DNA of 64,000 nucleotides from an uncultured Gammaproteobacteria bacterium (GTDB lineage: Bacteria; Patescibacteriota; Patescibacteriia; 2-12-FULL-60-25). The notes under the pieces were generated by a model, which saw only the letters and a program-made list of their open reading frames with translations, was not told the origin of the DNA and ran no database searches. The stretch covers positions 8,041 to 72,040 of the forward strand of contig CAZURG010000002.1 in the NCBI GenBank assembly GCA_964623645.1, read 5' to 3'. This document shows, piece by piece, positions 1,927 to 58,088 of the stretch. Made by a program: the position numbers and the translations under genes. The stretch's first letter is position 1. Each line of letters begins with the position of its first letter.

Positions 1927-2511
1927 ATGGTCGTGGATTCAAAGACAGTAGGTTCATATCTAAAGAATAATAAAGTATTGTTGGCCGGCGTGTTGATTGC
2001 GCTCGCCCTCTCTTTCTATGGCGGGATGCGGTATCAGCAATACCGGTTCCAAAAAGCCGTGACGAGTGCGTTCGGCGAGCTCGGCAAAGCATTTGGCGAA
2101 GGCTTATCTGGTACTGGCTCAAGCGTGAAAGCAAGTGACACCAAGCCTAAAGAGAATCCGCTTAATGCAAAAGTTACTGTTGAGCTCCAGGAAAAGACAT
2201 TCGTGCCGGATGACTATTTCAGTCAGATCTCATTCAAACTTAAGCTCACGAACAAGACTGATAAAGCAATGAAAGGCGTTCAAGGGAAGCTTGTCTTCAA
2301 AGACATCTTTGATAACGAAATCAAGTCGGTAGGGGTGAGCTACGACAAGGCGATCCCGGTCGGAGAATCCAGGGTCTGGGAAGGCTCGATCTACTACAGT
2401 GAATCGTCTGCGGACGACGTGAAGCTTAAAGAAGCTAAACTCGCCGACCTCAAGTACGCTTGGGACACGAATACGATCGTTTTCGAGGACGGAACCAAGG
2501 AGACGAATTAA
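1927..2511 (+). CDS. Membrane-anchored or secreted hypothetical protein
   Basis: 194-aa ORF. N-terminal anchor VLLAGVLIALALSFYGGMRYQQY, then a K/D/E-rich, beta-rich-looking domain. The anchor motif is shared with the CDS at 52821-53258. Confidence 0.6.
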   Translation: MVVDSKTVGSYLKNNKVLLAGVLIALALSFYGGMRYQQYRFQKAVTSAFGELGKAFGEGLSGTGSSVKASDTKPKENPLNAKVTVELQEKTFVPDDYFSQISFKLKLTNKTDKAMKGVQGKLVFKDIFDNEIKSVGVSYDKAIPVGESRVWEGSIYYSESSADDVKLKEAKLADLKYAWDTNTIVFEDGTKETN

Positions 2512-2532
2512 CTATTCGTCTTTTTTCCTACT

Positions 2533-3462
2533 ATGCCTCTCCTAAAAATCCAGAACGATGTCCTATCTCTGTTGGAAGAGACCGACATCGCGCTTGAGAA
2601 AGACCTGCAAGCTCTTACCGAGAAGAATCTCGGTACTGTATTCGGTCTCGACTTCGTTTCGACGGAGTTCGCTCTCCAAGGGCTCCGCCTCGATACCGTC
2701 GCCTTCGATCCGGAGACGCGTTCGTTCGTCATTATCGAGTACAAGCGTGACCGGAGCTTCAGCGTCATCGACCAGGGCTTCGCATATCTCGCGCTCCTCC
2801 TCAATAACAAGGCAGATTTCCTGCTTGAATATAACGAGAAGCGGGGAGCGAGCTTGAAACGTGAAGAGGTCGATTGGAGCCAGAGTCGCGTGCTCTTTCT
2901 CGCCCAAAGCTTCACGGCGCACCAGCTCCAGGCCATCAACTTCAAAGATTTGCCGATCGAACTCTGGGAAGTCACGAAGTATGGGAATGAACTCATCTCA
3001 TACCATCAGATCGAAGCCAAGCAGTTCAGTGAGTCCCTGAAGACCGTGACGAAGAGCGAAGTCGTCTCGTCCGTGAGTCGGGAAGTCCGCGTCTACTCGA
3101 CTGATGAGATCGTAGGGAAGGCCAAGGGGTCGGTTCGCGACCTTATGGAAGCGTTTCGCGTACGTATCCTCGAACTCGATGGGCGTTTCGAGGAGAAGGC
3201 GAACAGCCAGTATCTTGCCTTCAAGATCAACCGACGGAACGTGCTCGCACTCACTCCTATGAAGGACGTGTTGCTCTTGAGCTTCCCCCGTATCGAACCC
3301 AAAGACCTGAACGATCCGTTGAAGCGGCTCGAGTCACGCGGTTCGGAAGAGGTATACGGCCAGAAGCTCACGGACATGAGTATCAAGGACGAGCACGATA
3401 TCCCGTATGCGCTTGAACTCGTGCAGCAGGTGATCGCTCGTCAGGATTCTTCCGCTTCTTGA
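2533..3462 (+). CDS. PD-(D/E)xK (NucS/DUF91-like) nuclease-fold protein with a DUF5655-like C-terminal domain
   Basis: 309-aa ORF. LDTVAFDPETRSFVIIEYKRD gives the D...E-x-K core typical of endonuclease NucS-like N-terminal modules. The C-terminal half resembles DUF5655 as I recall it. Confidence 0.6.
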   Translation: MPLLKIQNDVLSLLEETDIALEKDLQALTEKNLGTVFGLDFVSTEFALQGLRLDTVAFDPETRSFVIIEYKRDRSFSVIDQGFAYLALLLNNKADFLLEYNEKRGASLKREEVDWSQSRVLFLAQSFTAHQLQAINFKDLPIELWEVTKYGNELISYHQIEAKQFSESLKTVTKSEVVSSVSREVRVYSTDEIVGKAKGSVRDLMEAFRVRILELDGRFEEKANSQYLAFKINRRNVLALTPMKDVLLLSFPRIEPKDLNDPLKRLESRGSEEVYGQKLTDMSIKDEHDIPYALELVQQVIARQDSSAS

Positions 3463-3995
3463 TCGTCATCGTCTAAATCGTCATTAAGCTCGTATTTCTC
3501 AAGGAGCTTCAGAGTCTTCGCATTAAGCATCTCGTATCTCCCTTTCTTCTTTCCCGCTGGTATATTTGCCGGAGGGGGAACATATCCGGGAAGCCGTTTC
3601 ATAGCTTCGTCCAGAAAATCGATTTCTGGTCCATCGGACGATGCCTCACGCATGCGCGAAGGAGGTTTGTATCTCTCCTTATTATGATTTAGCCAGTAGG
3701 TCGAGGATTTATGGTCGCCACGCTTGATCCCAGCGATAATGTTGTTTTCCGCGAGGTCGTTAACAGTATCGATACTGATCGCCATCGCTTCGTCGACCTT
3801 TGTTCGGTACCTGTCGTCCTCGCTCATCCACTTATAGTGTGTCGAGCGAGAGATCTTCACCTTGCTGCACGCCGCTTCGACGATCGGATACTTTGAAAGC
3901 AGCTCGATCATAAGCTTCTTTGCCTGGCGAGCCCGAAGACGCTCCGGTTTGCGACCGGGAGGAGGGGAATGAGGCAAAGAAGCTTCAGGAGGCAT
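3441..3995 (-). CDS. Phage-type HTH protein (terminase-small-subunit-like or phBC6A51-type HTH)
   Basis: 184 aa. IVEAACSKVKISRSTHYKWMSEDDRYRTKVDEA...NNIIAGIKRGDHKSSTYWLNHNKERYKP matches the HTH plus helical pattern of small terminase-like proteins. It has an acidic tail. Its start at 3995 lies 1 nt from the upstream stop at 3997. Confidence 0.5.
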   Translation of the reverse strand: MPPEASLPHSPPPGRKPERLRARQAKKLMIELLSKYPIVEAACSKVKISRSTHYKWMSEDDRYRTKVDEAMAISIDTVNDLAENNIIAGIKRGDHKSSTYWLNHNKERYKPPSRMREASSDGPEIDFLDEAMKRLPGYVPPPANIPAGKKKGRYEMLNAKTLKLLEKYELNDDLDDDDQEAEES

Positions 3996-3996
3996 A

Positions 3997-4773
3997 TTAA
4001 ATCTTCACGGCGCTGATCCCCGTGAGTGTTTCGTAGCGTGTGATGATGGTGCGGCAATACTCAGGATCGAGTTCGATCGTGTACGCGCGACGTTTCGTCT
4101 GCTCACACCCAATCAAAGTAGATCCCGATCCCCCAAAGGGATCGTAGACCACGTCACCAATCTTCGAGCTGTTTAGGAGAAGCATCCGCAAAAGGCCGAT
4201 CGGCTTCATCGTGGGATGGAGTTTGCTCTTGTGTGGTTTGGGGTAGATGAGGACACTTTTGTCCTTAGAGCGTTGGAAAAGATGTGTCCCGTGCCAGCCA
4301 TAGGTGACAAGTTCGTGTTGGGGAAGATAATCCATCCGACCGATGATCGAATGGGTCTTCACCCAGATGAGAAGCTGCGTGAACTTGAAGCCCGCTTCGA
4401 GCAGCCCTTCCCGTAAGCTAAAAATCATCTTGTCCGAGTTGAAGATGTAGTAGGCGTTCTTCTTCGTGAGATGTTCCTTTACGGCCAAGAGCCAGTCCCG
4501 AGTGAAAGCGCTGTATTCTGCATCACTCTGGGCATGGTCATTCAGAATCGTCTTCGGTTTCGAAAGATGGTCGGCGATGCCCATCTTCGAGCTGACGTAA
4601 TCGATGCCATATGGGGGATCGGTCAGAATGAGGCTTGGCTGTGCACCCGCAAGGAGCGTACGTACCAGCGTCCGGTCTTTAGCGTCCCCGCAAGCTAATC
4701 GATGTTCGCCGAGCTTGAAGATGTCTCCAGGATTAACCGAGAAGGATGGCTTTGGTTCCGGTGAGTTTTTCAT
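3997..4773 (-). CDS. DNA methyltransferase, N6-adenine/N4-cytosine (N6_N4_Mtase family)
   Basis: 258 aa. Catalytic motif ILTDPPYGIDY and AdoMet motif DPFGGSGSTLIGCEQ. The N-terminal LGEHRLACGDA is typical of phage/plasmid ParB-associated methylases. Confidence 0.85.
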   Translation of the reverse strand: MKNSPEPKPSFSVNPGDIFKLGEHRLACGDAKDRTLVRTLLAGAQPSLILTDPPYGIDYVSSKMGIADHLSKPKTILNDHAQSDAEYSAFTRDWLLAVKEHLTKKNAYYIFNSDKMIFSLREGLLEAGFKFTQLLIWVKTHSIIGRMDYLPQHELVTYGWHGTHLFQRSKDKSVLIYPKPHKSKLHPTMKPIGLLRMLLLNSSKIGDVVYDPFGGSGSTLIGCEQTKRRAYTIELDPEYCRTIITRYETLTGISAVKI

Positions 4774-6013
4774 ATCGAGAGATGATGAGGTCGCAAAAGA
4801 TCGGTTCGATTTCGACCGTGTAGCAGATACGCTTCATTTGCTCGCAGGCGATGAGTGTTGAGCCCGAACCAGCAAAGAGATCAAGGACGATGTCGCCGAC
4901 GCGTGTACACCGTTTGAGGGCCTTCTCATGTAACGTCGGACTCTTTTCTGTGGGATGGGAATAATCCTGTCCCGGAAGGCGCTTCACGAGCCAGATGTTG
5001 AAGAGTTCCTCGATGTCCTCGAGCGTACGGTTTCCGATCCCAACTTCTTTATTTAGGACTTCGTTCAGGTTCTTGATGTCCGGGGAAAGATATGGCTTCC
5101 CTCGAATCGCGTAGACGCACGGTTCGTAGGCTTTGTTGAAGGCCGTGCCAGGGGTAACGTTAAAATTGTTTTTAATCCATAGGCATGTACGTTTCTTATC
5201 CAGTCCATGCTCTTTGAAGAGACTCTGCACAATGCCGACGTAGTTCTCATCGCACCAGTAGAAGACGTGGGCGTCTGGTTCCGTGACGAGAAGGGCGTTC
5301 CGCAATGTCGCCGCAAGGAAAGAGCGGTAGTCGGATTCAGAGAGGCTGTCGTTCGTTTTACCGCCGTACTTGCCCTTGGTTGAGACTCCATCGGTATAGC
5401 TTAAGCCGATGTTGTAGGGTGCATCGCTGTAAATAATGTTCGCGAGCTTTGTTCCCATGAGCTTCTTTACGACGGGCTCATCCGTGGAGCTACCACAAAG
5501 TAACCGATGTTCACCAAGGGCGTAGAGCTCACCGGGTTTTGTTTTAGGTTCCGTAATCTTCGAGATCTCTTTCTCTACATCGAACCCGTCATCGTCCGTT
5601 TCGAGCGTATCATTCCAAATACTCCCTAAGTCATCGTTATCAAACCCGACCTCAAGAAGTAGGGAAGTGTCGAACTCTTTGAGAAGGTCGTAATTCCAGT
5701 CGCCCACGTTTTTATTCAAGCGGAGGTTGAGCTCACGCTCTTTATCTTCCGCGAGCGAGACGTACACGACCGGGACCTCGGTGAGACCAAGTTCCTTCGC
5801 GACCGTCCAGCGAAAGTGACCACCAATGATGATACCTTTGCGATCTGGATGGATGTTAACGATAAGCGGGTCGACGAAGCCGAAGCGTTCGATGCTTTCG
5901 CGTAAGTGGCTCTTCGCGGCGTCGTCCCAGGTACGGGGATTCCAGGGGCAGGGCTTCAGGCTGTTGATGGGAGCCTGGATGACCTTCAGGGAGGTGATAG
6001 GAATGTTTGTCAT
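4733..6013 (-). CDS. ParB-like nuclease domain fused to an N6/N4 DNA methyltransferase
   Basis: The track ORF is 4733-6079. I prefer the internal ATG at 6013 (MTNIPITSLKVI). ParB_N motif: IIIGGHFRWTVAKELGLTEVPVVYV. Methylase motifs: IIYSDAPYNIG and DLFAGSGSTLIACEQ. It overlaps the next methylase gene by 41 nt. Confidence 0.85.
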   Translation of the reverse strand: MTNIPITSLKVIQAPINSLKPCPWNPRTWDDAAKSHLRESIERFGFVDPLIVNIHPDRKGIIIGGHFRWTVAKELGLTEVPVVYVSLAEDKERELNLRLNKNVGDWNYDLLKEFDTSLLLEVGFDNDDLGSIWNDTLETDDDGFDVEKEISKITEPKTKPGELYALGEHRLLCGSSTDEPVVKKLMGTKLANIIYSDAPYNIGLSYTDGVSTKGKYGGKTNDSLSESDYRSFLAATLRNALLVTEPDAHVFYWCDENYVGIVQSLFKEHGLDKKRTCLWIKNNFNVTPGTAFNKAYEPCVYAIRGKPYLSPDIKNLNEVLNKEVGIGNRTLEDIEELFNIWLVKRLPGQDYSHPTEKSPTLHEKALKRCTRVGDIVLDLFAGSGSTLIACEQMKRICYTVEIEPIFCDLIISRYEKLTGTKAILLG

Positions 6014-6053
6014 ACGGAATGAAGAAGAATAAAAATGGAGCGGAAACAAAAAC

Positions 6054-6121
6054 GTGCCCACTCCGTAGAGAGGGCACAAAAATCAAAAAAAGACTTTATG
6101 AATTCTCTACGGAGTGGGCAC
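6054..6121. repeat. 17-bp perfect inverted repeat (gtgcccactccgtagag / ctctacggagtgggcac) with a 34-nt spacer, nested with a shorter hairpin
   Basis: The arms are at 6054-6070 and 6105-6121. An inner gtgccc/gggcac hairpin is at 6054-6077. On the minus strand the structure is followed by gtttttgtttcc. It therefore probably terminates the 6236-6709 gene and/or acts as an operator upstream of the methylase operon. Confidence 0.6.
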
Positions 6122-6235
6122 GACCGAGGCAAAGCCTCTTCGACGCGTTAGACGCGTCTCCTATCGATCAAAAGATCGAAATGAGTGATACACCACTGAT
6201 GGTATATGACGTGAAATGAACTTGTTATGAGTATA

Positions 6236-6709
6236 TCATTTTCGCTTTTTCTTTTGCAAGGCGTCGTATTGCTCGTTCCAGTCATTTCCAAAGAATATCG
6301 GTACCCCTCCTTTTGGTACACAGAGACGTACAGCTTTTCCCTGCGATCTCGCTTTTTCCATGATCTCTTTGATCGGTCCGAGGGGTAGTTCTATGGTTGA
6401 TTGCCCAGTAAGATCCATGTCGCTGAGCACATTGCCGTCCGCGTAAGCTTGAAGAGATTTCCCATTTCGCATCGACTTTTCTACGCCTCGAGCAAACGTG
6501 GTATCCCCTCGCATTTTGGTTGCGTGTAACACAGCGTACCTAAGTGTAATAGCGACCTCTTTATCGGTTTCAGAGATATAAAATTGATCAGTCGATCCAC
6601 TTTTATTAGGAATTTCGGCAATTTCATCTGTCATTGGTCCGTTTGTGGCTACGAACTCGATGGATTCGGCGATGAGGGGAGATTTTTGGCTTTTGGATTG
6701 ATTGCGCAT
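6236..6709 (-). CDS. Hypothetical protein (157 aa), downstream partner of the HEPN-like gene
   Basis: The ORF starts 46 nt downstream of the 6756-7625 stop on the same strand. I recognise no motif. Confidence 0.55.
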   Translation of the reverse strand: MRNQSKSQKSPLIAESIEFVATNGPMTDEIAEIPNKSGSTDQFYISETDKEVAITLRYAVLHATKMRGDTTFARGVEKSMRNGKSLQAYADGNVLSDMDLTGQSTIELPLGPIKEIMEKARSQGKAVRLCVPKGGVPIFFGNDWNEQYDALQKKKRK

Positions 6710-6755
6710 ATTTAAACCCTATAACAAGGGTGTTTATTTGAGTAGAGAGGTATTT

Positions 6756-7625
6756 CTAGATATGCACGTCGCTATTCTTCACGATAATCGCGCCATTATC
6801 GTGGACTATATTTTTGACGCAAGTAATTCTTTCTCCAAACTCATCCGAGTTACTTTTTTGGTTCTCTGCATGATCATTATTCCATCGTGTGATCATAATT
6901 CTCACTGCGCCATTAATTATTTCAAGCAGATCTTCCGGAGAAATAAAGATCCCTTGAAAATTCGTTTTTCTTTCGAGTTCGCGAGATTTTTCATTGAGCA
7001 AATCATCAGCGACGCAGACTTTATTCTGCACTGAAAAGAAGTGAGTTAGACAATTGCGCAGCTCCCTTAAGTCTTTTGTTGTTAAATGTCTCAAACGGTC
7101 GGGGTTTTTTTGACCCCACTTGTTGCTTTCGTGTAGGCAGAATCTATTCAAAAATGAATCAATCTCCTTTTTATTCATTGCAAATCCAATGATTTTTTCT
7201 TTGTCATATGTTTGTTTCTCGTAAGCCAGATTTAAACAGAATAGTGTATCTAAGTATGCAAATAATGCGACCACCTTAGATCGTGTAAATGGTTTTATCG
7301 TGGTATTTTCAAGAAAAGCAATGGGATTTTGAGATAGGGTGTGCTCGAAAGTGAGAGACTGTTCTTTCAGGACACTGAATGATTTCTCGATCAGCTTAAA
7401 TAGTTCTTTAAAATATGATCTGATATTCAACATCTTTCTATCGATCTCTAACATGCTCTTCACCTCTTTCTCTATTTCTTGCAAGAAAGAAATGATAGGG
7501 AGTAGATCGGGGGATATAACGACCTTATCTCCATCAAAGACAAAAAAAGTTGCTTCATTGAATACTGGAGCTTGTTCGGTATCGAGGTGTCCGGAAGATT
7601 GCTTTTTTGATGTTTGAGGAGCCAT
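6756..7625 (-). CDS. HEPN-like (Abi-type) protein with an RNxxxH motif
   Basis: 289 aa. DLRELRNCLTHFFS gives R-x4-H (codons at 7041-7058) in a helical C-terminal half. This resembles the Abi_2/HEPN families. Confidence 0.5.
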   Translation of the reverse strand: MAPQTSKKQSSGHLDTEQAPVFNEATFFVFDGDKVVISPDLLPIISFLQEIEKEVKSMLEIDRKMLNIRSYFKELFKLIEKSFSVLKEQSLTFEHTLSQNPIAFLENTTIKPFTRSKVVALFAYLDTLFCLNLAYEKQTYDKEKIIGFAMNKKEIDSFLNRFCLHESNKWGQKNPDRLRHLTTKDLRELRNCLTHFFSVQNKVCVADDLLNEKSRELERKTNFQGIFISPEDLLEIINGAVRIMITRWNNDHAENQKSNSDEFGERITCVKNIVHDNGAIIVKNSDVHI

Positions 7626-7725
7626 ATGAGTTGATAATAGGTAGAAATCGCCAAGTTATCAAACGATCCTTCTCTTCTACCTTTTCTAAACCGATGAGAT
7701 GCTAATATAGAATAAACTTTAACCT

Positions 7726-9252
7726 ATGCCCAAAAAATCCACGAAGAAACCACGAGTAACTAGAACCTACGGGCCGATCCATTTTGAGGATCTCGACCCA
7801 CATCGTTTTGAAGACCTAGTTCGCGAGTTAATCTATGATTATAAGGATTGGCAATCTATCGAAGCTACAGGAAGAGGTGGAAACGATGATGGTTTTGACA
7901 TTCGCGCTTATGAGAAGCAAAAGGTAGACCAGTCACAGCGGGAAGAGGATGGTGAGCAAAATGAACTGCACCCTATGCTCGGAAACCAGTGGATGATTCA
8001 AGGAAAAAGAGAGAAGGTGATTGGACCAAAACGCGTCGAGGAAATCATCGCTGATGTAGATGCTGAGAATCCTCCATACGGTTATATACTGGCGGCGTCA
8101 GCAAATTTTTCCAAAGATTCTTATGACACCTTTCGAGAAGAGTTGCGCAAGAAAGGAGTGATGGAGTTTCACTTATGGGGTAGGGCTGAATTGGAAGATA
8201 TGCTCCATTTTCCAAAGAATGATCATATACTTTTCACGTTTTTTGGCATTTCATTAGTCAGTAGAAAGCGATCTAGAACAACTGAGATACGGCGAGTGGT
8301 GATTCAGAAGAATAAGCTGTACAAACTGTTGGGAGAGGGACGTGGCGAGTTTCATCAATCTGTTCTTCTCAGAGATTCAAACGATGTTAACTATCCGTAT
8401 GAAGACGAGTATGGCGACTTTGATACCTTCCCTCGTTGGCGTGAATATAAGGCAATTAAGAATCATACTGATGGTGTTATTTTCGCTATACGCAAGCATT
8501 ACGCCTATATAGATAAAGAAAAGAAGGAGTATGACTACACTGAGGTGGTAAACCTGATTTACAGGGAAAGCGATTCGCAGGATAAAAAACAAAAGCAACA
8601 GGAGGATCGCAGAAAAGTGGAAAGCTTCTGGGAGTATTTACCCCGCCACAGTCAAGCAACTTTTATTAGGAATGGTTTAGTTCAATATGACGAAATCCTA
8701 GTTATTGATGAGAAAGGGGATAATGCATATGAATTCCCACATCTATTTGTTGACTTTAATGGTAGGAATTACCCATTCGCTGGAAGCTACGAATACTTAG
8801 ATGTGCAAGAGGATCAGATTTCTCTTAAAGATTATAAGCGTATAAAAAAGTTCCCCGATTCTTTTTTAGAACCTAGTATAGGAACGATACACGAAGACAA
8901 AAATATTACTTTAAGTAACCAACATTTCAGCATGTTAAAGAACGATAATGAAGAGTTTTTCGCACTTTATGATTTGGACGGTAGGTATAGCTTCCTTCAG
9001 TCCACGGATTTGTTAAAAATTGAAAACCAGGATCAAGGAAGTAGCTCTAATTACTATCTCCGAATTACTCATGTAGAGAGAGTGAATTTAGGAAAGTATC
9101 TTGAAAAGTACCCAAATCTAGAGTGGGCAATCGAGCGTCAGATAGAGGGAGGTCTCGATCTCGAAAAAACTTTAAACATCTGTGAGTTTAAAAAAACCTA
9201 TAGCTTCGTTGTAGAGCAAGAGAAGAGTAAGCGGGATAAGAAGAAATCGTGA
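7726..9252 (+). CDS. Protein with an N-terminal Mrr-like (restriction endonuclease, PD-(D/E)xK) domain and a ~340-aa unknown C-terminal region
   Basis: 508 aa. FEDLVRELIYDY...ATGRGGNDDGFDIRAY...WMIQGKRE matches the Mrr_cat pattern FE-x-L...G-x-DGG-x-D-I...Q-x-K. The C-terminal part is unrecognised. Confidence 0.65.
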   Translation: MPKKSTKKPRVTRTYGPIHFEDLDPHRFEDLVRELIYDYKDWQSIEATGRGGNDDGFDIRAYEKQKVDQSQREEDGEQNELHPMLGNQWMIQGKREKVIGPKRVEEIIADVDAENPPYGYILAASANFSKDSYDTFREELRKKGVMEFHLWGRAELEDMLHFPKNDHILFTFFGISLVSRKRSRTTEIRRVVIQKNKLYKLLGEGRGEFHQSVLLRDSNDVNYPYEDEYGDFDTFPRWREYKAIKNHTDGVIFAIRKHYAYIDKEKKEYDYTEVVNLIYRESDSQDKKQKQQEDRRKVESFWEYLPRHSQATFIRNGLVQYDEILVIDEKGDNAYEFPHLFVDFNGRNYPFAGSYEYLDVQEDQISLKDYKRIKKFPDSFLEPSIGTIHEDKNITLSNQHFSMLKNDNEEFFALYDLDGRYSFLQSTDLLKIENQDQGSSSNYYLRITHVERVNLGKYLEKYPNLEWAIERQIEGGLDLEKTLNICEFKKTYSFVVEQEKSKRDKKKS

Positions 9253-9255
9253 ATT

Positions 9256-9813
9256 TCAAATCCTTAAGATTTTCGCCTCATTCCACGCCGTCCAAGGAGT
9301 CTCGCGATAGCGAGCCAGGTTCTCTTCCGATGGATTCAAGATAAAGCCAATCCCATCTCGATGCTCGCGTTGAACAAGGAAAGTCATGCCAGTCGTCCCT
9401 TCAACAACCATCCATCTTAGGACTGAGTTCTTTGGGGACTTCTCTCGCGTATACCCAATGAGCTTGGCGAGTTCATCGAAGTTATCGTGCTGTTGCCACC
9501 AGTCTCGTGAATACCCTTTGCTTACCCCTGCGTGAGAGGGGATGGATTCGTGTTCCTTCGGGTCTTCTTTGTGGTTTAGATATGCGAGAATGTCTGTTCG
9601 ACGGAAAAGAAGCTTTCCAGCTACGCGGTAAACGTTCACGGCATGTCGATCGATCATACGTCTCACAACCTTTTCCTCCACTTCCAGCGTTTGAGCTAGT
9701 TCTGGAGTATCGAGGAATTCGACATCCTCTTGTAAGAGGAGTGAGTCAGGTTTCTTAAATACGGCTGGATCGATGCCAAATGCGTCAGGAGTGTTGGGTT
9801 TGAATAGCGGCAT
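9256..9813 (-). CDS. Excisionase/MerR-type HTH (HTH_17-like) protein with an unknown C-terminal domain
   Basis: 185 aa. LDTPELAQTLEVEEKVVRRMIDRHAVNVYRVAGKLLFRRTDILAYL is an HTH_17-like segment. Its start lies 1 nt after the stop of the upstream 87-aa gene. Confidence 0.55.
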   Translation of the reverse strand: MPLFKPNTPDAFGIDPAVFKKPDSLLLQEDVEFLDTPELAQTLEVEEKVVRRMIDRHAVNVYRVAGKLLFRRTDILAYLNHKEDPKEHESIPSHAGVSKGYSRDWWQQHDNFDELAKLIGYTREKSPKNSVLRWMVVEGTTGMTFLVQREHRDGIGFILNPSEENLARYRETPWTAWNEAKILRI

Positions 9814-9814
9814 A

Positions 9815-10078
9815 TTATTGATTCCAGCGAGGAGTCATTCCACGTTCAACTAAGGCAATGACTTCATCGTACTTAAAAAGACGTTTTCGGAGCACTCGAT
9901 AACAAGCGATCTGTCCAGAATCGGCAAGGCGATAAACGCTGGCGGTGGAGATTCTTAAAAGTTTACCGACTTCCTTAACCGTCATGAGGCGAAGATCGGG
10001 CTTTGGGGTGTTTGATGGCGTTGGATTCTTCGTTGATCCACTACCATTGGATCTTGTGTTTGTAGAACGAAAGGCCAT
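9815..10078 (-). CDS. Excisionase-family DNA-binding protein (HTH_17)
   Basis: 87 aa. LMTVKEVGKLLRISTASVYRLADSGQIACYRVLRKRLFKYDEVIALVE is a classic AlpA/Xis-type HTH. Confidence 0.7.
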   Translation of the reverse strand: MAFRSTNTRSNGSGSTKNPTPSNTPKPDLRLMTVKEVGKLLRISTASVYRLADSGQIACYRVLRKRLFKYDEVIALVERGMTPRWNQ

Positions 10079-10166: not shown

Positions 10167-10476
10167 CAGGCGACTCCTTTACCCAGCCTCATCGGCGACG
10201 CACCTTCACATATTAATGAGAATTAATAAGCAAGATCGCAAAAAGGAGTATTTAAAATTTTACAGCTTATTCCAGTGAACGCAAGACGTTCCACGTTTTC
10301 TTTAGAATGAATTCGGCTCAGTTATGGTAAGTCACGGTCACTGATCCTAACGATCATTTTTTTGTAATGTATCAGCTTGCTTTTTAGAAGCTCTTAGAGT
10401 CATATAGTGCTGATATAGTCTTAAATACGCTTTGAAAAAGCCGCCATTCGCTGAATCTAAAACGTCATGTTTCTCT

Positions 10477-12258
10477 ATGCCTAAAGATAAACAAAAGAAG
10501 AGTAATATCGCGATTTGGCGAATCGACACGAACCTTGAGGTTTGTTTGAATAAGAGCACTGATGAAATCATTCAAATGATCCAGCGGGTTTATACGAAAC
10601 GAGACTTGACCCCGCTGCCGTTCAATGGGACCTCCTATGAAGGGAAGAACGTGAAGGGTTTTCAAGCTGCTAGGTATTCAGATGGTCTTCAAGTCTTTTT
10701 AGCGCCCTTGTTACGCTCTGGCTTGTCTGATGAAGATAAGAATAGACTTTTTTCAAGTGTTAACAAAGACATCGTGCTGTTTATTTACGATGAAAGCGAC
10801 ATTTTTGCTGTGACGAGTGGAACGGGATATTCAATCATTCAGAACTACTTAGACGAACGCTTCCCATTCGAGATTGCAAAAAGGATGTTGAAGGGCGACT
10901 TTAAGAGTGCAGAGATGCGCGGTCTTACTGGCTTGGTATATGCGCAATCAAGGAACTTTCGACGAGATTACAATTTTTCTCGTAAGGAAGCCTTCGGTAA
11001 GGTATGGAAAAAGCTAACAGGAAGTATCGATCCGGCTGTACTAGAGGGTAGTGCATTCATTCGTGATTTTTTATCCGACGACAGTGGAAAAAAGATTAAT
11101 GCAGACGTAAAGTCGTCTTTCACTTTTCGTAAGACAATCAATCTTAAACAGGTTTTTTCCGCTGTGAAAGAGCTGCAGAGCCTACTTTCTAAAGATCTGA
11201 CGACGGATCAGGCTAATGCTTTTATCTTTCTAGATACCCTCAAAGAGGTCACTAAGCAGGAAACGAAGGAAGTCTTGAAAGAGGCGCTAGTTACGGAGCT
11301 GTATAGCTTTGTGAGTTCTTCCGATAGCCAAGAGTGCGATTATGACTTCTGCCATCCAAAAGAGATGACCAAATTCCTCTACGGAACAGACTATAAAATA
11401 TCCCGAGATCTTACGTGGGAGGATGCGCCATCTTCAGCAGAAGTTCTGATGAAGATTCGTAATTCAGATAAGATAGATAAAAGCAGTCTAGAGAACTTCA
11501 AGGAAGCATTCTTTGGTTTGTCCATGAGCTTTCTGGAGGAGGATGAAGGATTGATGCATAGTGACGATCTTTGGAAATACTTTCATGGTGAAGTTGAGCA
11601 AGGGGATAAGAAGTATTTCCTAATCGACGGAAAGTTCTACGAGGTGATTGGTGAGTTCTTAAAGACCCTCGGAACGGATTTTGAGGACTGCGTCTTCGGA
11701 GATGACTCTATTTTGACTAGCGCCATTCCACTGAACAAATGGGATCCTGCGGAAGATGAGTCGGACTATAATGAAAGGCAAGGGAAGGTAGATCTTTTCT
11801 ACTTTGGCGACAAGGTGTTCTTAAAGAAAGGGACAAAAGGGAAGATCGAGCTTTTTGATCTTCTGTACGTGCAAGATGGAAAGGCCTACATCATCCAGGT
11901 AAAAGACGGTTTCGGGGCTTCTATTCGAGATGCTTGCTCACAGATTCAAATGGCAGCCGAGATTATCGAGCACGATCTTCAAGTCGTGAATAACCCAGAG
12001 TTGAGTCGATACTTTGTAGAGTTTAGTAAGCTAAACCATGGTCTAGATCGGAAGCAATTTTTAGAGCTTCTTAGGTTAGAGCGCCACTACGTGCTTGCAT
12101 CTGCTACAAGACAGGAATTTACTAAAGAAGCCTTTAAGAAAGGGATGTTTAAGTCTGAAATAGCAAAATTCGAAGTTTTAGGAGTGGCTCATGAATTCAA
12201 AGCTAATGACTACAAGTTCCATCTTGCCCGTATTGAGCGCGTTAGTGGTCGAGTATAG
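10477..12258 (+). CDS. DUF6119/TIGR04141-like 'sporadically distributed' protein with a C-terminal PD-(D/E)xK-like motif
   Basis: The track ORF starts at TTG 10432. The first ATG is at 10477 (MPKDKQKKSNIAIWRI). IVLFIYDESDIFAVTSGTGYSIIQNYLDERFPFEIAKRML...RGLTGLVYAQSRNFRRDYNFS follows the family pattern as I remember it. ELFDLLYVQDGKAYIIQVKDG (11857-11904) gives D...Q-x-K. Confidence 0.55.
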   Translation: MPKDKQKKSNIAIWRIDTNLEVCLNKSTDEIIQMIQRVYTKRDLTPLPFNGTSYEGKNVKGFQAARYSDGLQVFLAPLLRSGLSDEDKNRLFSSVNKDIVLFIYDESDIFAVTSGTGYSIIQNYLDERFPFEIAKRMLKGDFKSAEMRGLTGLVYAQSRNFRRDYNFSRKEAFGKVWKKLTGSIDPAVLEGSAFIRDFLSDDSGKKINADVKSSFTFRKTINLKQVFSAVKELQSLLSKDLTTDQANAFIFLDTLKEVTKQETKEVLKEALVTELYSFVSSSDSQECDYDFCHPKEMTKFLYGTDYKISRDLTWEDAPSSAEVLMKIRNSDKIDKSSLENFKEAFFGLSMSFLEEDEGLMHSDDLWKYFHGEVEQGDKKYFLIDGKFYEVIGEFLKTLGTDFEDCVFGDDSILTSAIPLNKWDPAEDESDYNERQGKVDLFYFGDKVFLKKGTKGKIELFDLLYVQDGKAYIIQVKDGFGASIRDACSQIQMAAEIIEHDLQVVNNPELSRYFVEFSKLNHGLDRKQFLELLRLERHYVLASATRQEFTKEAFKKGMFKSEIAKFEVLGVAHEFKANDYKFHLARIERVSGRV

Positions 12259-12309: not shown

Positions 12310-12819
12310 ATGGAACAAGCAGAGTTATTGGGTAAAGTAAAATCAGCTGTAAAAAAGTTGATCGTAGATGATGCTCACTTACTGACATATAGCGTTTCCG
12401 AGAGGAGTATTTGTCACCAATTAGCGATATATCTCGCCGCGGAGTTTGCGGGGTATTCGGTTGATTGTGAATACAATCGGCACGAAGATGTTTCAAAAAG
12501 ATTAAGCTTCAAATTAGACGATTCGCAGACACCTCGTGATCCAGATGACCATGGAGTTTGTGTTTCACCAGACATAATTATTCATGAAAGAGGTACTGAC
12601 GCGCGTAACCTGCTCGTCATTGAGCTAAAGAAAGATAGTAACCCTTTAAGGAAGGGCGACTACGATCTTAAGAAAATCCGAGCGTATGTAGATGAGATAG
12701 GTTATGATTTTGGTCTGTTTATCGAGCTTGGCACTGGTGAGAATATAGGTATGAAAGATGCTGAGTTAGCGACTAAAGAATCCGATAAGCTGGTTAACGT
12801 ACTCTCGATCTTGTCATAG
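12310..12819 (+). CDS. Small PD-(D/E)xK nuclease-fold protein
   Basis: 169 aa. It starts 51 nt after the DUF6119-like gene with no hairpin between them. Motifs: SERSICHQLAIYL...DCEYNR...SPDIIIHERGTDARNLLVIELKK (D...E-x-K). Confidence 0.55.
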   Translation: MEQAELLGKVKSAVKKLIVDDAHLLTYSVSERSICHQLAIYLAAEFAGYSVDCEYNRHEDVSKRLSFKLDDSQTPRDPDDHGVCVSPDIIIHERGTDARNLLVIELKKDSNPLRKGDYDLKKIRAYVDEIGYDFGLFIELGTGENIGMKDAELATKESDKLVNVLSILS

Positions 12820-12831
12820 CTCATAAGTTGT

Positions 12832-13350
12832 TTAGTTTGCGACTTGTCCGATTCCGGGATTTTCTGATTTAAGAAACACATATTCATACGGCTTTCCTTC
12901 CTTATTCAGAATAATACGCGCTTTAAGCTCACCTTTTCGTACCATTTTCCTCACGGTAGCCGAATGTAGTTTGAACTTGCTCTCAAGTTCCCACATGAGC
13001 CATCTGCTATCGCGATCCGTGAAGACTTCGGGGGGAACGATCCCTTCATCTAGCGCCCTTTGACAATCTAGACATTTTTGCCCGTATTTATCGTACCAGC
13101 TCGAGTCTCCACTGATGGTCACGTGACAAAGAATGCAGCTATACGTCCCATCTGTTAGATGGAATCCATTCGGGTGCTCTTTAAGCATCTCTTCACGCCT
13201 GGTCTCTCTTTGAGAGATTTTAAGCAGAAGTCCGAAGAATCCAATAAGGGGGATGGCCTCTGCTTTGGCTCTATCGTCGCTGATTTCCTCTCCAAACGAC
13301 TCTTTCCAGACTTCCTTGAACTCATCGATTGCTTTTTGGGGTAATTGCAT
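12832..13350 (-). CDS. Zinc-ribbon plus HTH_17-like DNA-binding protein
   Basis: 172 aa. CILCH...CLDCQ (CxxC...CxxC), then WLMWELESKFKLHSATVRKMVRKGELKARIIL (HTH). It is convergent with the 12310-12819 gene and divergent from the nucleotidyltransferase cassette. Confidence 0.55.
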   Translation of the reverse strand: MQLPQKAIDEFKEVWKESFGEEISDDRAKAEAIPLIGFFGLLLKISQRETRREEMLKEHPNGFHLTDGTYSCILCHVTISGDSSWYDKYGQKCLDCQRALDEGIVPPEVFTDRDSRWLMWELESKFKLHSATVRKMVRKGELKARIILNKEGKPYEYVFLKSENPGIGQVAN

Positions 13351-13535: not shown

Positions 13536-13597
13536 GACAGTGTCTGGCGACCCAGACACTGTCAGTCAAAAAAGCACCACAAACGTGGTGCTTTTTT
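13536..13597 (+). terminator. Tandem hairpins, the second a bidirectional rho-independent terminator
   Basis: gacagtgtctgg-cgac-ccagacactgtc (12-bp stem, 13536-13563), then aaaaaa-gcaccac-aaac-gtggtgc-tttttt (13568-13597). Confidence 0.65.
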
Positions 13598-13641
13598 GTT
13601 GTTTGGCATTGGGCTGGTCAAGAGCTATATTATCGGTTGAT

Positions 13642-14427
13642 ATGTCTCAAATTGATCTACGATCGGTCCTTGATCATCTCTCGCATTCACCAAAAGTAAA
13701 AGCCATTTTCACAACAGGCACAACCGCTTCTGGATTAGGGCCATCGAGCGATATCGATCTTGTAGTTATCTTAGAAAAAAATGATGCAGGTATAAAGTCA
13801 GCCTACGCAATGATCGAAAACCGTTTCGCTGACATCTTTTTCTTTGATTTGGATTTTGTGAAAAAGGTGGCGCAGTTAGAGAAAATCTCTGCTAATGGTT
13901 TTGAAGGCATATTTATAACATGGCTAGCGAAAGGAAGGATCGAAAAAGATGAAAACGGACTTTTGTCAGAACTAAAAGCGAAATCAGAATCCAAGTCGCA
14001 CGCGCTTAGTATCTCTTTGGAAGAAAAACAAGATAATTGGTTCAAAATAAATTATAACTTCATCGCCAATCAGCGGTATTTTCATTCTAAGGATAACTTG
14101 TATCACACCGCTTTGGAAATCAGGCTTCTTTATAGTGTCAGTGAATTGATTGTGGCGTATTTTTCTCTGCGAGGTATTCCATGGAGAGGGGAAAAAGAAG
14201 CTGTAAAGTATCTCGAATCGAATGATGCGGAAGCGCTCAAGGTTTTCATTGATTATACAAAGAGTCAATCGCTTGCAGATAGATTCCGTTCATACCAAGC
14301 GCTCTTCAAGGTGGTATTGTATGGTGATTTTCAAGTATGGGATAAAGATTTCATGGTCGTGAAAGATGTGAAGAATCAAATCAATGAGACATCGGCTAGC
14401 TATATACAAGAGCTGATTGGGAAATAG
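13642..14427 (+). CDS. Pol-beta-superfamily nucleotidyltransferase with a helical C-terminal domain (KNTase/ANT-like architecture)
   Basis: The track ORF is 13540-14427. The upstream part runs through the terminators, so I use the ATG at 13642 (MSQIDLRSV). TTGTTASGLGPSSDIDLVVIL is the G-S...D-x-D NTase signature. Confidence 0.7.
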   Translation: MSQIDLRSVLDHLSHSPKVKAIFTTGTTASGLGPSSDIDLVVILEKNDAGIKSAYAMIENRFADIFFFDLDFVKKVAQLEKISANGFEGIFITWLAKGRIEKDENGLLSELKAKSESKSHALSISLEEKQDNWFKINYNFIANQRYFHSKDNLYHTALEIRLLYSVSELIVAYFSLRGIPWRGEKEAVKYLESNDAEALKVFIDYTKSQSLADRFRSYQALFKVVLYGDFQVWDKDFMVVKDVKNQINETSASYIQELIGK

Positions 14428-56818: not shown

Positions 56819-58088
56819 TTGATTGCTTCACGTGCATTTTGGTTGTGATGTGGCCATGTATTTGATAAATATGAGTTAAATTTGGTTGTCTTATTCCTGT
56901 GAAGTACGGCTATGATTGCTCGCTTTAGAATTCTTTTGCCCTATACGGTATTTGTGCCAGAGGGTGCAAGGCTTGATCCGATAAAACAGACAGTCGCTTC
57001 TTATCAGGTTACGATCCACCCGCCTTATCAGACGAAGCTGCTGCTACAAGATCTTGATCTTTTCTCCGAAAAATCACCCATCGACCTTCTTGAGGATTTG
57101 GAACCGGTATCGGATCCGACCTTTTTTGATCAGGTTTTAATTGGGGGTCGTAGAGGCGGTCCATCTACTTTAATTCAAATTGATTTTCAGGCGGATAGCT
57201 TTTCCCGGAAAAGGGGTCAAGAGCCACAGAGAATAGATCCTGGGGCAGAGTTTATATTTGCGATATTGAACTCATTTCTAAGCAAGATCCGAAGCCTGAC
57301 CAGGTCGCCCTACGTCAAAAATGTTACTCCGAATGAAAGCCATTTTAGAATTACGTATCTTGATGACGAAGGCACTCTCCTGCCGGAAGATAAAGAATTA
57401 TTTCGAGATTTTCGGTGTGGTAACATAGAGTTTAATGCGAATCATGTATCCGAGGCGATATGGAATCAAATTCAATCTTTGCCCGATTCGTACGCTCCGC
57501 TTCCGTATGAGAAGCTGTTATTGGATGCGCAGAGCATGATGTCTGAAATCGGTGCCTGTATTTTCTTAATGCACGCCGCTTTGGAATTGCTGGTCGAACA
57601 TGCGTTGGATATTTTAAAAGAGGCAATGCCGGCCTCTTCGCGTGAAATATGGTCTGTGCTTACTGACAAGCAGCGGTATCGGGTTGCTGAGCAGTATAAG
57701 GATCTTCTGCCGCTTGTATCTGGTGGACGCTCATTAGTGAAGGAATTGCCTGATCACTGGAACGCGTTTATGAAGCTTTGTAAGGCTAGGAATGGTTTTG
57801 CACACGAGGGAAAGCTGGTTGTGGAAGGGAATGAGCTATATTTAGACGATGTTAAAGAAATTTTCAGAAAGGTTAAAGAGATTGTCGATTTTGTCGAGGA
57901 GCTGTTGCCAATTGAAAAACGTCGGCAGCCTTTTTCCGGTGCGAAGATAGATATTGGAAAAAAACTAGCTGATCCAAATCCTGGCACAAATAGAAATGTA
58001 ACTGTTCGTGTGGATACGATATAACTTGAGACGACGTACTGCGCTCTACCCCTCCCCACGCCGACGTTTTCCTGGAATGGAATCTTTT
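56819..58088. mobile_element. AT-rich single-gene islet between GC-rich housekeeping genes
   Basis: There is a sharp visual drop in G+C between the oxidoreductase stop (56818) and the greA stop (58089). I found no flanking direct repeats or recombinase. Confidence 0.45.
56912..58024 (+). CDS. HEPN-like protein with an RNxxxH motif (ApeA/Abi-like architecture)
   Basis: 370 aa. The C-terminal helical domain has FLMHAALELLVEHAL ... LCKARNGFAHEGK (R-x4-H at 57788-57805). The N-terminal ~190 aa are unrecognised. Confidence 0.5.
   Translation: MIARFRILLPYTVFVPEGARLDPIKQTVASYQVTIHPPYQTKLLLQDLDLFSEKSPIDLLEDLEPVSDPTFFDQVLIGGRRGGPSTLIQIDFQADSFSRKRGQEPQRIDPGAEFIFAILNSFLSKIRSLTRSPYVKNVTPNESHFRITYLDDEGTLLPEDKELFRDFRCGNIEFNANHVSEAIWNQIQSLPDSYAPLPYEKLLLDAQSMMSEIGACIFLMHAALELLVEHALDILKEAMPASSREIWSVLTDKQRYRVAEQYKDLLPLVSGGRSLVKELPDHWNAFMKLCKARNGFAHEGKLVVEGNELYLDDVKEIFRKVKEIVDFVEELLPIEKRRQPFSGAKIDIGKKLADPNPGTNRNVTVRVDTI

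Follow-up and report, generated by a model that had tools for sequence, protein, structure and literature searches.

The three adjacent genes w157, w289 and w508 (short names for genes encoding proteins of 157, 289 and 508 amino acids) lie in a mobile defence island of low guanine-plus-cytosine (GC) content within the 64,000-nt stretch of DNA analysed here (the window). They had been put forward, in the original prediction, as one compact divergent defence unit. Our analysis points instead to three functionally independent units that meet where a conserved mobile-island backbone adjoins variable defence cargo, a reading to which we assign a probability of roughly 70%. The 3-kb stretch would then hold not one three-gene immune system but the first gene of a methylase operon (w157), a lone predicted RNA-cutting toxin (w289) and a lone Mrr-type nuclease (w508). 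The apparent module is an artefact of tight packing at the backbone/cargo junction.

All three open reading frames (ORFs) have conserved homologues elsewhere in database searches and are therefore real genes, and the ORF list places them, the 46-nt gap between w289 and w157 and the 100-nt divergent spacer between w289 and w508 where the original prediction had put them. It had also been said that the genes map to no named system, and none of w157, w289 and w508 gave a match in PADLOC (PADLOC-DB 2.0) at E-values up to 0.1. Co-occurrence was assessed by tblastn with 14 window proteins together with profile hidden Markov models (HMMs) of the w289 and w508 families, applied to every ORF of every locus. 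The loci compared were 15 others with a w289 homologue (10 distinct contexts; L001-L008, L030 and L033-L037), 14 with a w508 homologue and six with a w157 homologue. More than one of the three families was found only in the window itself, and none of the 35 other loci with one homologue has a second. The 15 w289 loci contain neither a w157 nor a w508 homologue, the 14 w508 genome loci have no w289 or w157 homologue within 10 kb, and the six w157 loci lack w289. Since the homologues of the three genes do not co-localise in any of the other loci compared, the single-module reading fails.

Judged by synteny, w157 is a gene of the island backbone and the first of a methylase operon. Its family amounts to 7 clusters among 5.8e9 proteins and occurs in six other loci (L024-L029); the protein has no match in Pfam, NCBIfam, PHROGs, PADLOC or PDB sequences, which bears out its earlier description as unrecognisable. 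In all six of these loci the same conserved spacer of ~220 nt lies directly downstream of w157. A 425-aa ParB-N6/N4 methylase gene follows after the ~222-nt spacer in five of them (L024-L028), and a 258-aa N6/N4 methylase gene and then a 178-204-aa gene come next in the four contigs long enough to include them (L024-L027); L028 ends inside the ParB-methylase gene and L029 stops inside the spacer. The backbone genes of L024-L027 are syntenic with window positions 6079-3441 (-) at 61-91% protein identity, and L024 is syntenic with window positions 1927-6709 at 62-91%, including the PDC-S18 gene and the 194-aa gene described below. A large serine recombinase gene stands beside proS in L024, and the backbone block is therefore part of an integrative element. 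The proposal that w157 is the partner of the HEPN-like w289 thus gives way to a different association, in which w157 opens the neighbouring methylase operon.

Upstream of w157 the picture changes. DNA conservation ends at the w157 ATG, and the DNA beyond it is not conserved between loci. This slot holds a divergent 271-aa gene in L024 (L024:73-888(-)), a 324-aa gene in L025-L028 (L025:826-1800(-)), a 328-aa gene in L029 (L029:4217-5203(-)) and, in the window, w289 with w508; the slot proteins show no similarity to one another across loci. The window gene w172 (12832-13350) has a 90%-identical copy in L029, and in both elements w172 and w157 bracket a cargo region, which comprises four genes in L029 but six in the window. 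The constant synteny with the methylases, the variable slot upstream of w157 and the bracketing by w172 and w157 together identify w157 as backbone, and w289 and w508 as cargo in a variable hotspot. The backbone operon runs from w157 through a structured leader of ~220 nt to the ParB-N6/N4 methylase, the second N6/N4 methylase and a terS-like helix-turn-helix (HTH) protein. This last, 184-aa protein shows a weak similarity to the small terminase subunits of phages (PHROG 4044, E = 2.6e-6), and given such a terS-like gene the island may be a satellite-like or packaging-competent element. Two scans of viral contigs, one with the w289 alignment and one with the leader motif, found no homologue.

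The spacer between w157 and the ParB-methylase gene is itself conserved. Its mean column identity across four loci is 79%, with long invariant blocks (counterparts at L024:1423-1648, L025:2330-2554 and L029:5690-5815), and its DNA is better preserved than the coding sequence on either side. In the RNAalifold prediction it forms five hairpins, with three compensatory pairs, and two more such pairs were seen by eye in L029; one hairpin is a 19-bp stem followed by GTTTTTGTTT, a T-run. The minimum free energy is -82.7 kcal/mol (z = -9.4 against shuffles). Rfam gave no family match for the spacer or anywhere else in the window, spurious miRNA hairpins being the sole matches on the spacer. Its role may be that of an attenuator or leader or of a small RNA; alternatively, the ParB-methylase or the terS-like protein may use it as a DNA site.

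The w289 family is rare, with 16 close homologues among 5.8 billion clusters and 182 representative clusters in a profile search of 1.84 billion proteins; a metagenome scan added one new locus. The protein has no match in Pfam, NCBIfam, PHROGs, PADLOC or PDB sequences. The RNCLTH motif pointed out in the original prediction is encoded at the positions given there and corresponds to residues 190-195. An R-x4-H pattern alone arises by chance about once per 300-aa protein, as estimated from typical residue frequencies, and the motif is meaningful because it is conserved, not because it is present. The 16 close homologues all have L189, R190, N191, L193 and H195. When 28 distant relatives (15-47% identity) are added to the alignment, R190 and H195 are the sole invariant residues besides the start Met, and both are among the seven positions conserved to at least 90% in 113 sequences. 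Because the distant relatives keep the C-terminal ~170 residues and have the N-terminal part replaced, the motif-bearing core can be recognised as a conserved module. The replacement N-terminus carries a SEC-C zinc motif in five of them (P0281, P0285, P0288, P0290 and P0291; best E = 1.1e-8).

The AlphaFold2 (AF2) model of w289, with a predicted local distance difference test score (pLDDT) of 77.6 and a predicted template modelling score (pTM) of 0.72, shows an all-alpha core with an N-terminal beta-hairpin. A 50-residue helix (residues 39-88) is followed by a long helix (114-137) that carries the nearly invariant E126 and by short helices (142-179). Helix 183-194 closes with the motif and H195 opens the loop, and there are a small beta/alpha insert and a further long helix (230-258). 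[quoted passage not shown] N191 supplies the polar residue that follows the arginine in HEPN R-x4-6-H motifs. Sub-threshold HEPN matches in Pfam were obtained for 12 of the 113 relatives (HEPN_Apea in seven, RiboL-PSP in two, Swt1 in two and Cthe2314 in one), HEPN_Apea being the commonest Pfam family among the weak matches of the relatives (best E = 0.0024). Motif conservation, the place of the motif in the model and the weak matches of relatives together suggest that w289 is a member of the HEPN superfamily, which we hold to be somewhat more probable than the contrary, and that it most likely acts as a stand-alone HEPN-type RNase.

The surroundings of w289 homologues are rich in restriction-modification (R-M) and methylase genes. 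In L002 (3514-9541) a type III R-M locus consists of mod (652 aa), an overlapping HEPN-like gene, which is the w289 homologue (273 aa), a gene for a 230-aa protein with an N-terminal hydrophobic stretch recognised by eye, and res (856 aa). This arrangement resembles that of prrC, which sits inside EcoprrI. A w289 homologue starts 4 nt after the gene for an MmeI-type enzyme in L033 and L034, and another lies behind an N6_N4 methylase gene in L030. Those of L003 and L004 are found a few kb from genes for an MmeI/Eco57I-type enzyme, RhuM and a T5orf172-ResIII protein, and that of L036 is near ThsB_TIR and NucS. At least 16 HEPN clades are linked to R-M systems (PMC3710099).

A conserved two-gene system of HEPN protein and partner was considered and rejected, in that the proteins encoded downstream (199, 230, 113, 273 and 132 aa, and w157) are mutually unrelated by pairwise BLAST; there is therefore no conserved antitoxin or partner for w289. 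A HEPN-MNT toxin-antitoxin pair was likewise rejected, there being no adjacent nucleotidyltransferase gene in the homologue loci or in the window, where the only such gene is 6 kb away (13540-14427). Nor is w289 of the PrrC/RloC type: it has no P-loop or ABC match, and the lone match to a P-loop family was BrxF-like, at E = 0.011, far under the cut-off. As a lone cargo gene, w289 would encode a metal-independent RNase, to judge from its R-N-x-L-x-H core. Like PrrC, RloC, ApeA and the HEPN proteins of abortive infection (Abi) systems, it would remain silent until infection or interference with neighbouring R-M functions, and once triggered it would cut cellular or phage RNA, so that the infection is aborted.

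w508 carries an Mrr-type nuclease domain at its N-terminus. Pfam Mrr_cat (PF04471) matches residues 22-159 with 29.7 bits against a cut-off of 21, and the Mrr signature reported in the original prediction is present as FEDLV (28-32), GGNDDGFDI (51-59) and IQGK (91-94). Mrr_cat matches 53 of 55 family members, and E21, D22, E29, E46, D58, Q92 and K94 are invariant in 55 full-length homologues, giving the D...QxK form of a PD-(D/E)xK site. For the remaining ~340 residues, as had been anticipated, searches of Pfam, NCBIfam, PHROGs, PADLOC and PDB sequences gave nothing; the invariant aromatic residues of the C-terminal part include Y223, Y229, F232, W238 and W302. The family is large, with 1129 matches at E<=1e-3, and among the best 120 of these all but three span 89% or more of the protein's length, with identities of 50-70%. 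The best matches come from bacteria of the candidate phyla radiation (CPR), Cyanobacteriota, metagenome-assembled genomes of Deltaproteobacteria type, Thiodiazotropha and others. In all, more than 120 full-length relatives are spread over CPR bacteria, Bacteroidota, Deltaproteobacteria-type lineages, Atribacterota and others, and the 14 genome loci, to which one 52-aa fragment is added, range from Paceibacterota to Pedobacter, Syntrophales and Atribacterota.

In the AF2 model of w508 (pLDDT 84.4) an alpha/beta domain (residues ~20-175) is joined by a linker helix (184-202) to two beta-rich regions (206-345 and 346-508), with pLDDT mostly above 90. A Foldseek search of the PDB returned a group of nuclease-type structures, namely MspJI (E = 1.4e-3, probability 1.0), EcoT38I, AspBHI, the Avs4 nuclease, SPARDA and Rpb5 (Rpb5-N), with 126-203 aligned columns and modest E-values. 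Since no PUA-type domain is known in Avs4, SPARDA or Rpb5, the nuclease domain offers the simplest account of this group. ASCH domains were also matched (3s9x, 5y6c and 5gus; E = 0.017-0.13, probability 0.8-0.99, 100-120 columns). These matches are placed in the C-terminus because ASCH domains have no nuclease fold, and on the model one of the C-terminal domains may be of ASCH/PUA-like fold. Sequence searches gave no support for an ASCH/PUA domain: ASCH was matched by a single one of the 55 members, at E = 0.95, and a search of PDB sequences with the profile came back empty; nor was there any SRA, EVE or YTH signal in w508. An internal duplication of the C-terminus was rejected, as hhalign of its two halves found nothing.

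Identity among the 55 homologues is 80-88% in the nuclease domain and 51% and 39% in the two C-terminal regions, as would be expected where a catalytic module stays fixed and the specificity module attached to it diversifies. ORF clustering revealed no neighbour shared by the 14 w508 loci, and in a Pfam census of 98 neighbouring ORFs no family occurred in more than four of the ORFs (the commonest were N6_Mtase in three, Resolvase in three, AbiEii in three and Fic in two). An N6_Mtase-type gene lies within 5 kb in three of the 14 (L010, L014 and L019). The pattern of domain divergence, together with the usual lack of a neighbouring methylase, indicates that w508 most likely works alone as a restriction enzyme dependent on modification (type IV-like); its C-terminal domains would read DNA or a modified base and its Mrr-type nuclease would cut.

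Decayed copies of w508 also exist, as seen from a split and a fragmentary homologue. The gene in Pedobacter sp. AW31-3R is divided into two ORFs by a frameshift (L020:10001-11453), and a Zambryskibacteria contig keeps a 52-aa N-terminal fragment of 87% identity (L023:7435-7590). Plasmid matches, comprising a shorter Agrobacterium relative and Deinococcus fragments truncated by insertion sequences, were uninformative.

The 100-nt spacer between w289 and w508 does contain, on the + strand, the extended -10-like element TGCTAATAT (7700-7708) on which a promoter for w508 had been proposed, but no complete sigma-70-like site was detected on the + strand of 7626-7725 in a consensus scan. The best promoter-like site of the spacer, and its sole full sigma-70-like match, is on the - strand, TTGATA-17-TATTAT at 7662..7634, just upstream of w289, and would give w289 an almost leaderless mRNA. 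There are 10 promoter-like sites in the region compared with 7.4 +/- 2.9 in shuffles; these are consensus matches only and do not exceed expectation.

Several observations weigh against the interpretation presented here. The neighbourhood sample is small, 10 contexts for w289 and 14 loci for w508 set against 182 and 1129 family matches, respectively, and a rare true association could escape it. Only 46 nt separate w289 from w157, with no terminator-like site between them, and the two are probably co-transcribed in the window; read-through from w289 into w157 is plausible, but as a local accident of insertion and not as a conserved arrangement. For w289, the RNxxxH motif on which its HEPN-like description was based is conserved and of catalytic type, but no curated HEPN model reaches threshold: Pfam HEPN models fall short both on w289 and on consensus sequences of its family. 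An hhalign comparison of the w289 family with one HEPN_Cthe2314 protein (from L029) also gave no match, and a Foldseek search with the whole uncropped model against PDB and BFVD retrieved no HEPN structure and nothing at E <0.2, the top matches being coiled-coil and BAR-type helices, which the 50-residue N-terminal helix attracts. As regards w508, the ASCH match is weak (E ~0.02) and was reported with no query coordinates, so that its C-terminal placement is inferred. In the window, moreover, two methylase genes are found 1.6 kb from w508, an unusual setting for an enzyme that depends on modification.

This proximity would be accounted for if w508 were the restriction enzyme of a classical R-M system in which the N6/N4 methylases at 3997-6013 protect host DNA by methylation. 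w508 is annotated as of restriction endonuclease type, and in L010 its homologue starts 11 nt after an N6_Mtase/Eco57I-type gene. The methylase operon of L024-L027, however, has no w508 homologue, the 14 w508 loci lack those methylases, with N6_Mtase-type genes near only three, and in the window w289 and w157 stand between the supposed partners, which are divergently oriented. The ParB-methylase is in addition of the PHROG 498 type, and ParB-fused methylases of this type are typical orphan methylases of mobile elements. With w508 and the methylases each occurring without the other elsewhere, we regard a classical R-M system as very unlikely. We give still less credence to a three-gene defence system in which w157, w289 and w508 share a divergent control region and supply RNase and DNase effectors. 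The tight packing (gaps of 46 and 100 nt) in the lowest-GC part of a defence island would agree with it, as would the absence of all three genes from PADLOC, but the tblastn and profile HMM comparison (0 of 35 other loci with a second homologue), the consistent tie of w157 to the methylase operon instead, and the lack of a recurrent neighbour among w508 homologues make it extremely improbable.

A different connection between backbone and cargo would exist if the methylase backbone recruits to the slot beside it an RNase of HEPN type that serves as a guard or second line in the manner of PrrC and is set free once a phage disturbs the DNA-modification module; w289 would then be one HEPN gene among several that can replace each other. 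The slot is occupied in every w157 locus, HEPN-like motifs are found in two of the three alternative slot proteins (LRNKGIAHG in the 324-aa protein of L025 and NRHSIMHG in the 328-aa protein of L029), and a HEPN_Cthe2314 gene (L029:3351-3944(-)) adjoins the slot gene of L029. The w289 homologues beside or inside R-M or methylase operons (L002, L030 and L033) or a few kb away from them (L003 and L004) are in line with such recruitment, and R-M-linked HEPN genes are a known theme (PMC3710099). Yet Pfam, NCBIfam and PADLOC gave no significant match for the slot proteins of 271, 324 and 328 aa, R-x4-6-H motifs are expected by chance, the slot gene of the other loci is divergent from w157 whereas w289 is co-directional, and there are only four independent examples. 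The backbone methylases also have no partner restriction enzyme, and thus nothing obvious to guard. At the level of motifs, the slot next to w157 may favour HEPN-type cargo, but recruitment as a guard is in our view unlikely. A broader statement, that the w508 family is an unrecognised major type IV-like family, or that the w157-methylase backbone is a new HEPN-recruiting hotspot, or both, we consider possible but doubtful. Three separate units at a backbone/cargo junction remain the reading that we prefer, and the two cargo genes probably fit known kinds, w289 as a predicted HEPN-like RNase linked to Abi or R-M systems and w508 as a solitary Mrr-type nuclease of type IV.

The proposed three-gene module should accordingly not count as a candidate new system, and it illustrates how genes packed closely in a defence hotspot can look like an operon. 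What the locus offers in its place is two uncharacterised candidates for single-gene defence, overlooked by current defence-finder models and absent from PADLOC: an abundant and very widely distributed Mrr-type family whose sensor region is unassigned (w508) and a rare HEPN-like family repeatedly wedged into R-M operons (w289). The analysis also brings to light a non-coding element, conserved and strongly structured, that precedes the methylase operon of a mobile element. If the broader reading of w508 is true, the protein would have an inverted, nuclease-first architecture, and its new, fast-evolving two-domain reader would recognise a DNA modification with no link to restriction so far. Should w508 be a modification-dependent enzyme whose reader domain is new, type IV restriction would gain a specificity class, and the protein could serve as a tool for detecting modified DNA. 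Were the backbone a HEPN-recruiting hotspot, it would be a new hotspot of mobile elements in which HEPN proteins guard an orphan methylation module and the structured RNA of ~220 nt is a regulatory switch.

Table 1. Positions in the window of w157, w289, w508 and associated features.
Feature	Position	Strand	Description and basis
w157	6236-6709	-	157 aa; first gene of the conserved island backbone operon
w289	6756-7625	-	289 aa; stand-alone predicted HEPN-type RNase of a rare uncharacterised family
RNCLTH (R-x4-H) codons, w289 R190-H195	7041-7058	-	ORF translation
Divergent spacer between w289 and w508	7626-7725	.	100 nt
w508	7726-9252	+	508 aa; solitary Mrr-type nuclease with beta-rich C-terminal domains
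w508 nuclease domain, ~residues 20-175, PD-(D)...QxK	7783-8250	+	Pfam Mrr_cat, Foldseek
w508 C-terminal beta-rich region, ~residues 206-508, putative DNA or modified-base reader	8341-9249	+	AF2 model, Foldseek
Conserved structured non-coding spacer, w157 to ParB-methylase gene	6014-6235	-	Alignment, folding
ParB-N6/N4 methylase	4733-6013	-	Family matches; backbone gene downstream of w157
Second N6/N4 methylase	3997-4773	-	Family matches; backbone gene
terS-like HTH protein, 184 aa	3441-3995	-	Family matches; last backbone gene

The wider setting of these features is an island with a GC content of 0.39-0.52 over the first ~15 kb of the window, compared with 0.58-0.70 over most of the remainder. 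The claim that the three genes occupy the AT-richest part of the island holds in so far as GC falls to 0.39 at 7-9 kb (0.60-0.65 in the host part), but this value is tied with that of the first kb of the window. On the backbone side, the PDC-S18 gene (2533-3462 (+)) is a full-length match to a PADLOC candidate system (E = 1.9e-97) and encodes a DUF5655 C-terminus; the adjoining gene (1927-2511 (+)) encodes the 194-aa protein, and the pair is kept in L024, where the 194-aa and PDC-S18 proteins show 65% and 72% identity, respectively. Beyond w508 are two excisionase-like HTH_17 genes (9256-10078), one of which resembles MAD1 of MADS, and beside them a gene (10432-12258 (+)) whose 608-aa product is a DUF6119/TIGR04141 'sporadically distributed protein' and has, at about residues 466-497, a segment weakly similar to the EcoO109I nuclease. 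The 169-aa protein encoded at 12310-12819 (+) matches PD-Lambda-3_A (E = 1.8e-30), and the nucleotidyltransferase gene already mentioned (13540-14427) belongs to the same surroundings. No tRNA genes were found in the window. At window positions 57001-58000 there is a sharp dip in GC to 0.44, with flanks of ~0.60; it overlaps a 370-aa ORF (56912-58024) and may be another inserted element.

Among known systems, the island is comparable to the defence hotspots of P2 phages and P4 satellites (PMC9122126), in which conserved backbone genes likewise bracket a variable, defence-rich cargo. In our case the brackets are w157 and the methylases on one side and w172 on the other, and the element in the window has terS-like and excisionase-like HTH genes, while its relative L024 has a large serine recombinase. 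w289 shares with the R-M-linked and Abi HEPN RNases (PrrC/RloC, ApeA and AbiD/F-type; PMC3710099) the R-N-x-x-x-H motif closing a helix, the upstream acidic residue and the all-alpha core, and like them it stands alone in defence or R-M neighbourhoods, one homologue lying between mod and res. It differs in giving no significant HEPN match in Pfam, NCBIfam or PADLOC. It has neither the ABC ATPase domain of PrrC and RloC nor the beta-rich N-terminal domain of ApeA; its own N-terminus is a beta-hairpin with the 50-residue helix.

w508 and E. coli Mrr, the type IV enzyme after which Mrr_cat is named, have in common the Mrr_cat family, the (I/V)Q-x-K signature and a solitary nuclease located beside R-M genes, for E. 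coli Mrr in the immigration control region. E. coli Mrr starts with a winged-helix domain that binds DNA and ends with the nuclease; the order in w508 is the opposite, and Mrr_cat is the sole domain detected in it. The best structural matches to w508, MspJI and AspBHI, belong to a family of modification-dependent (type IV) restriction enzymes. Like w508 they are single polypeptides that combine a nuclease with a separate beta-rich domain, in their case of the PUA/SRA-superfamily type, and have no obligatory methylase, and MspJI shares the QxK variant of the PD-(D/E)xK site. The order of domains is again reversed, the nuclease being N-terminal in w508 and C-terminal in MspJI and AspBHI, and the C-terminus of w508 is twice as long (~300 aa) and made up of two sub-domains. 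The PUA-nuclease fusions screened by Lutz et al. also all have a C-terminal nuclease, unlike w508 (PMC6765204). The END nucleases, single-gene enzymes of defence islands that join a phospholipase D (PLD) nuclease to an inactivated EndoIII sensor (PMC12191111), have no homology to w508, with PLD in place of PD-(D/E)xK and a helix-hairpin-helix in place of a beta-rich sensor, but they are alike in logic and in order, with a catalytic domain at the N-terminus and, putatively in the case of w508, a sensor for modified phage DNA at the C-terminus.

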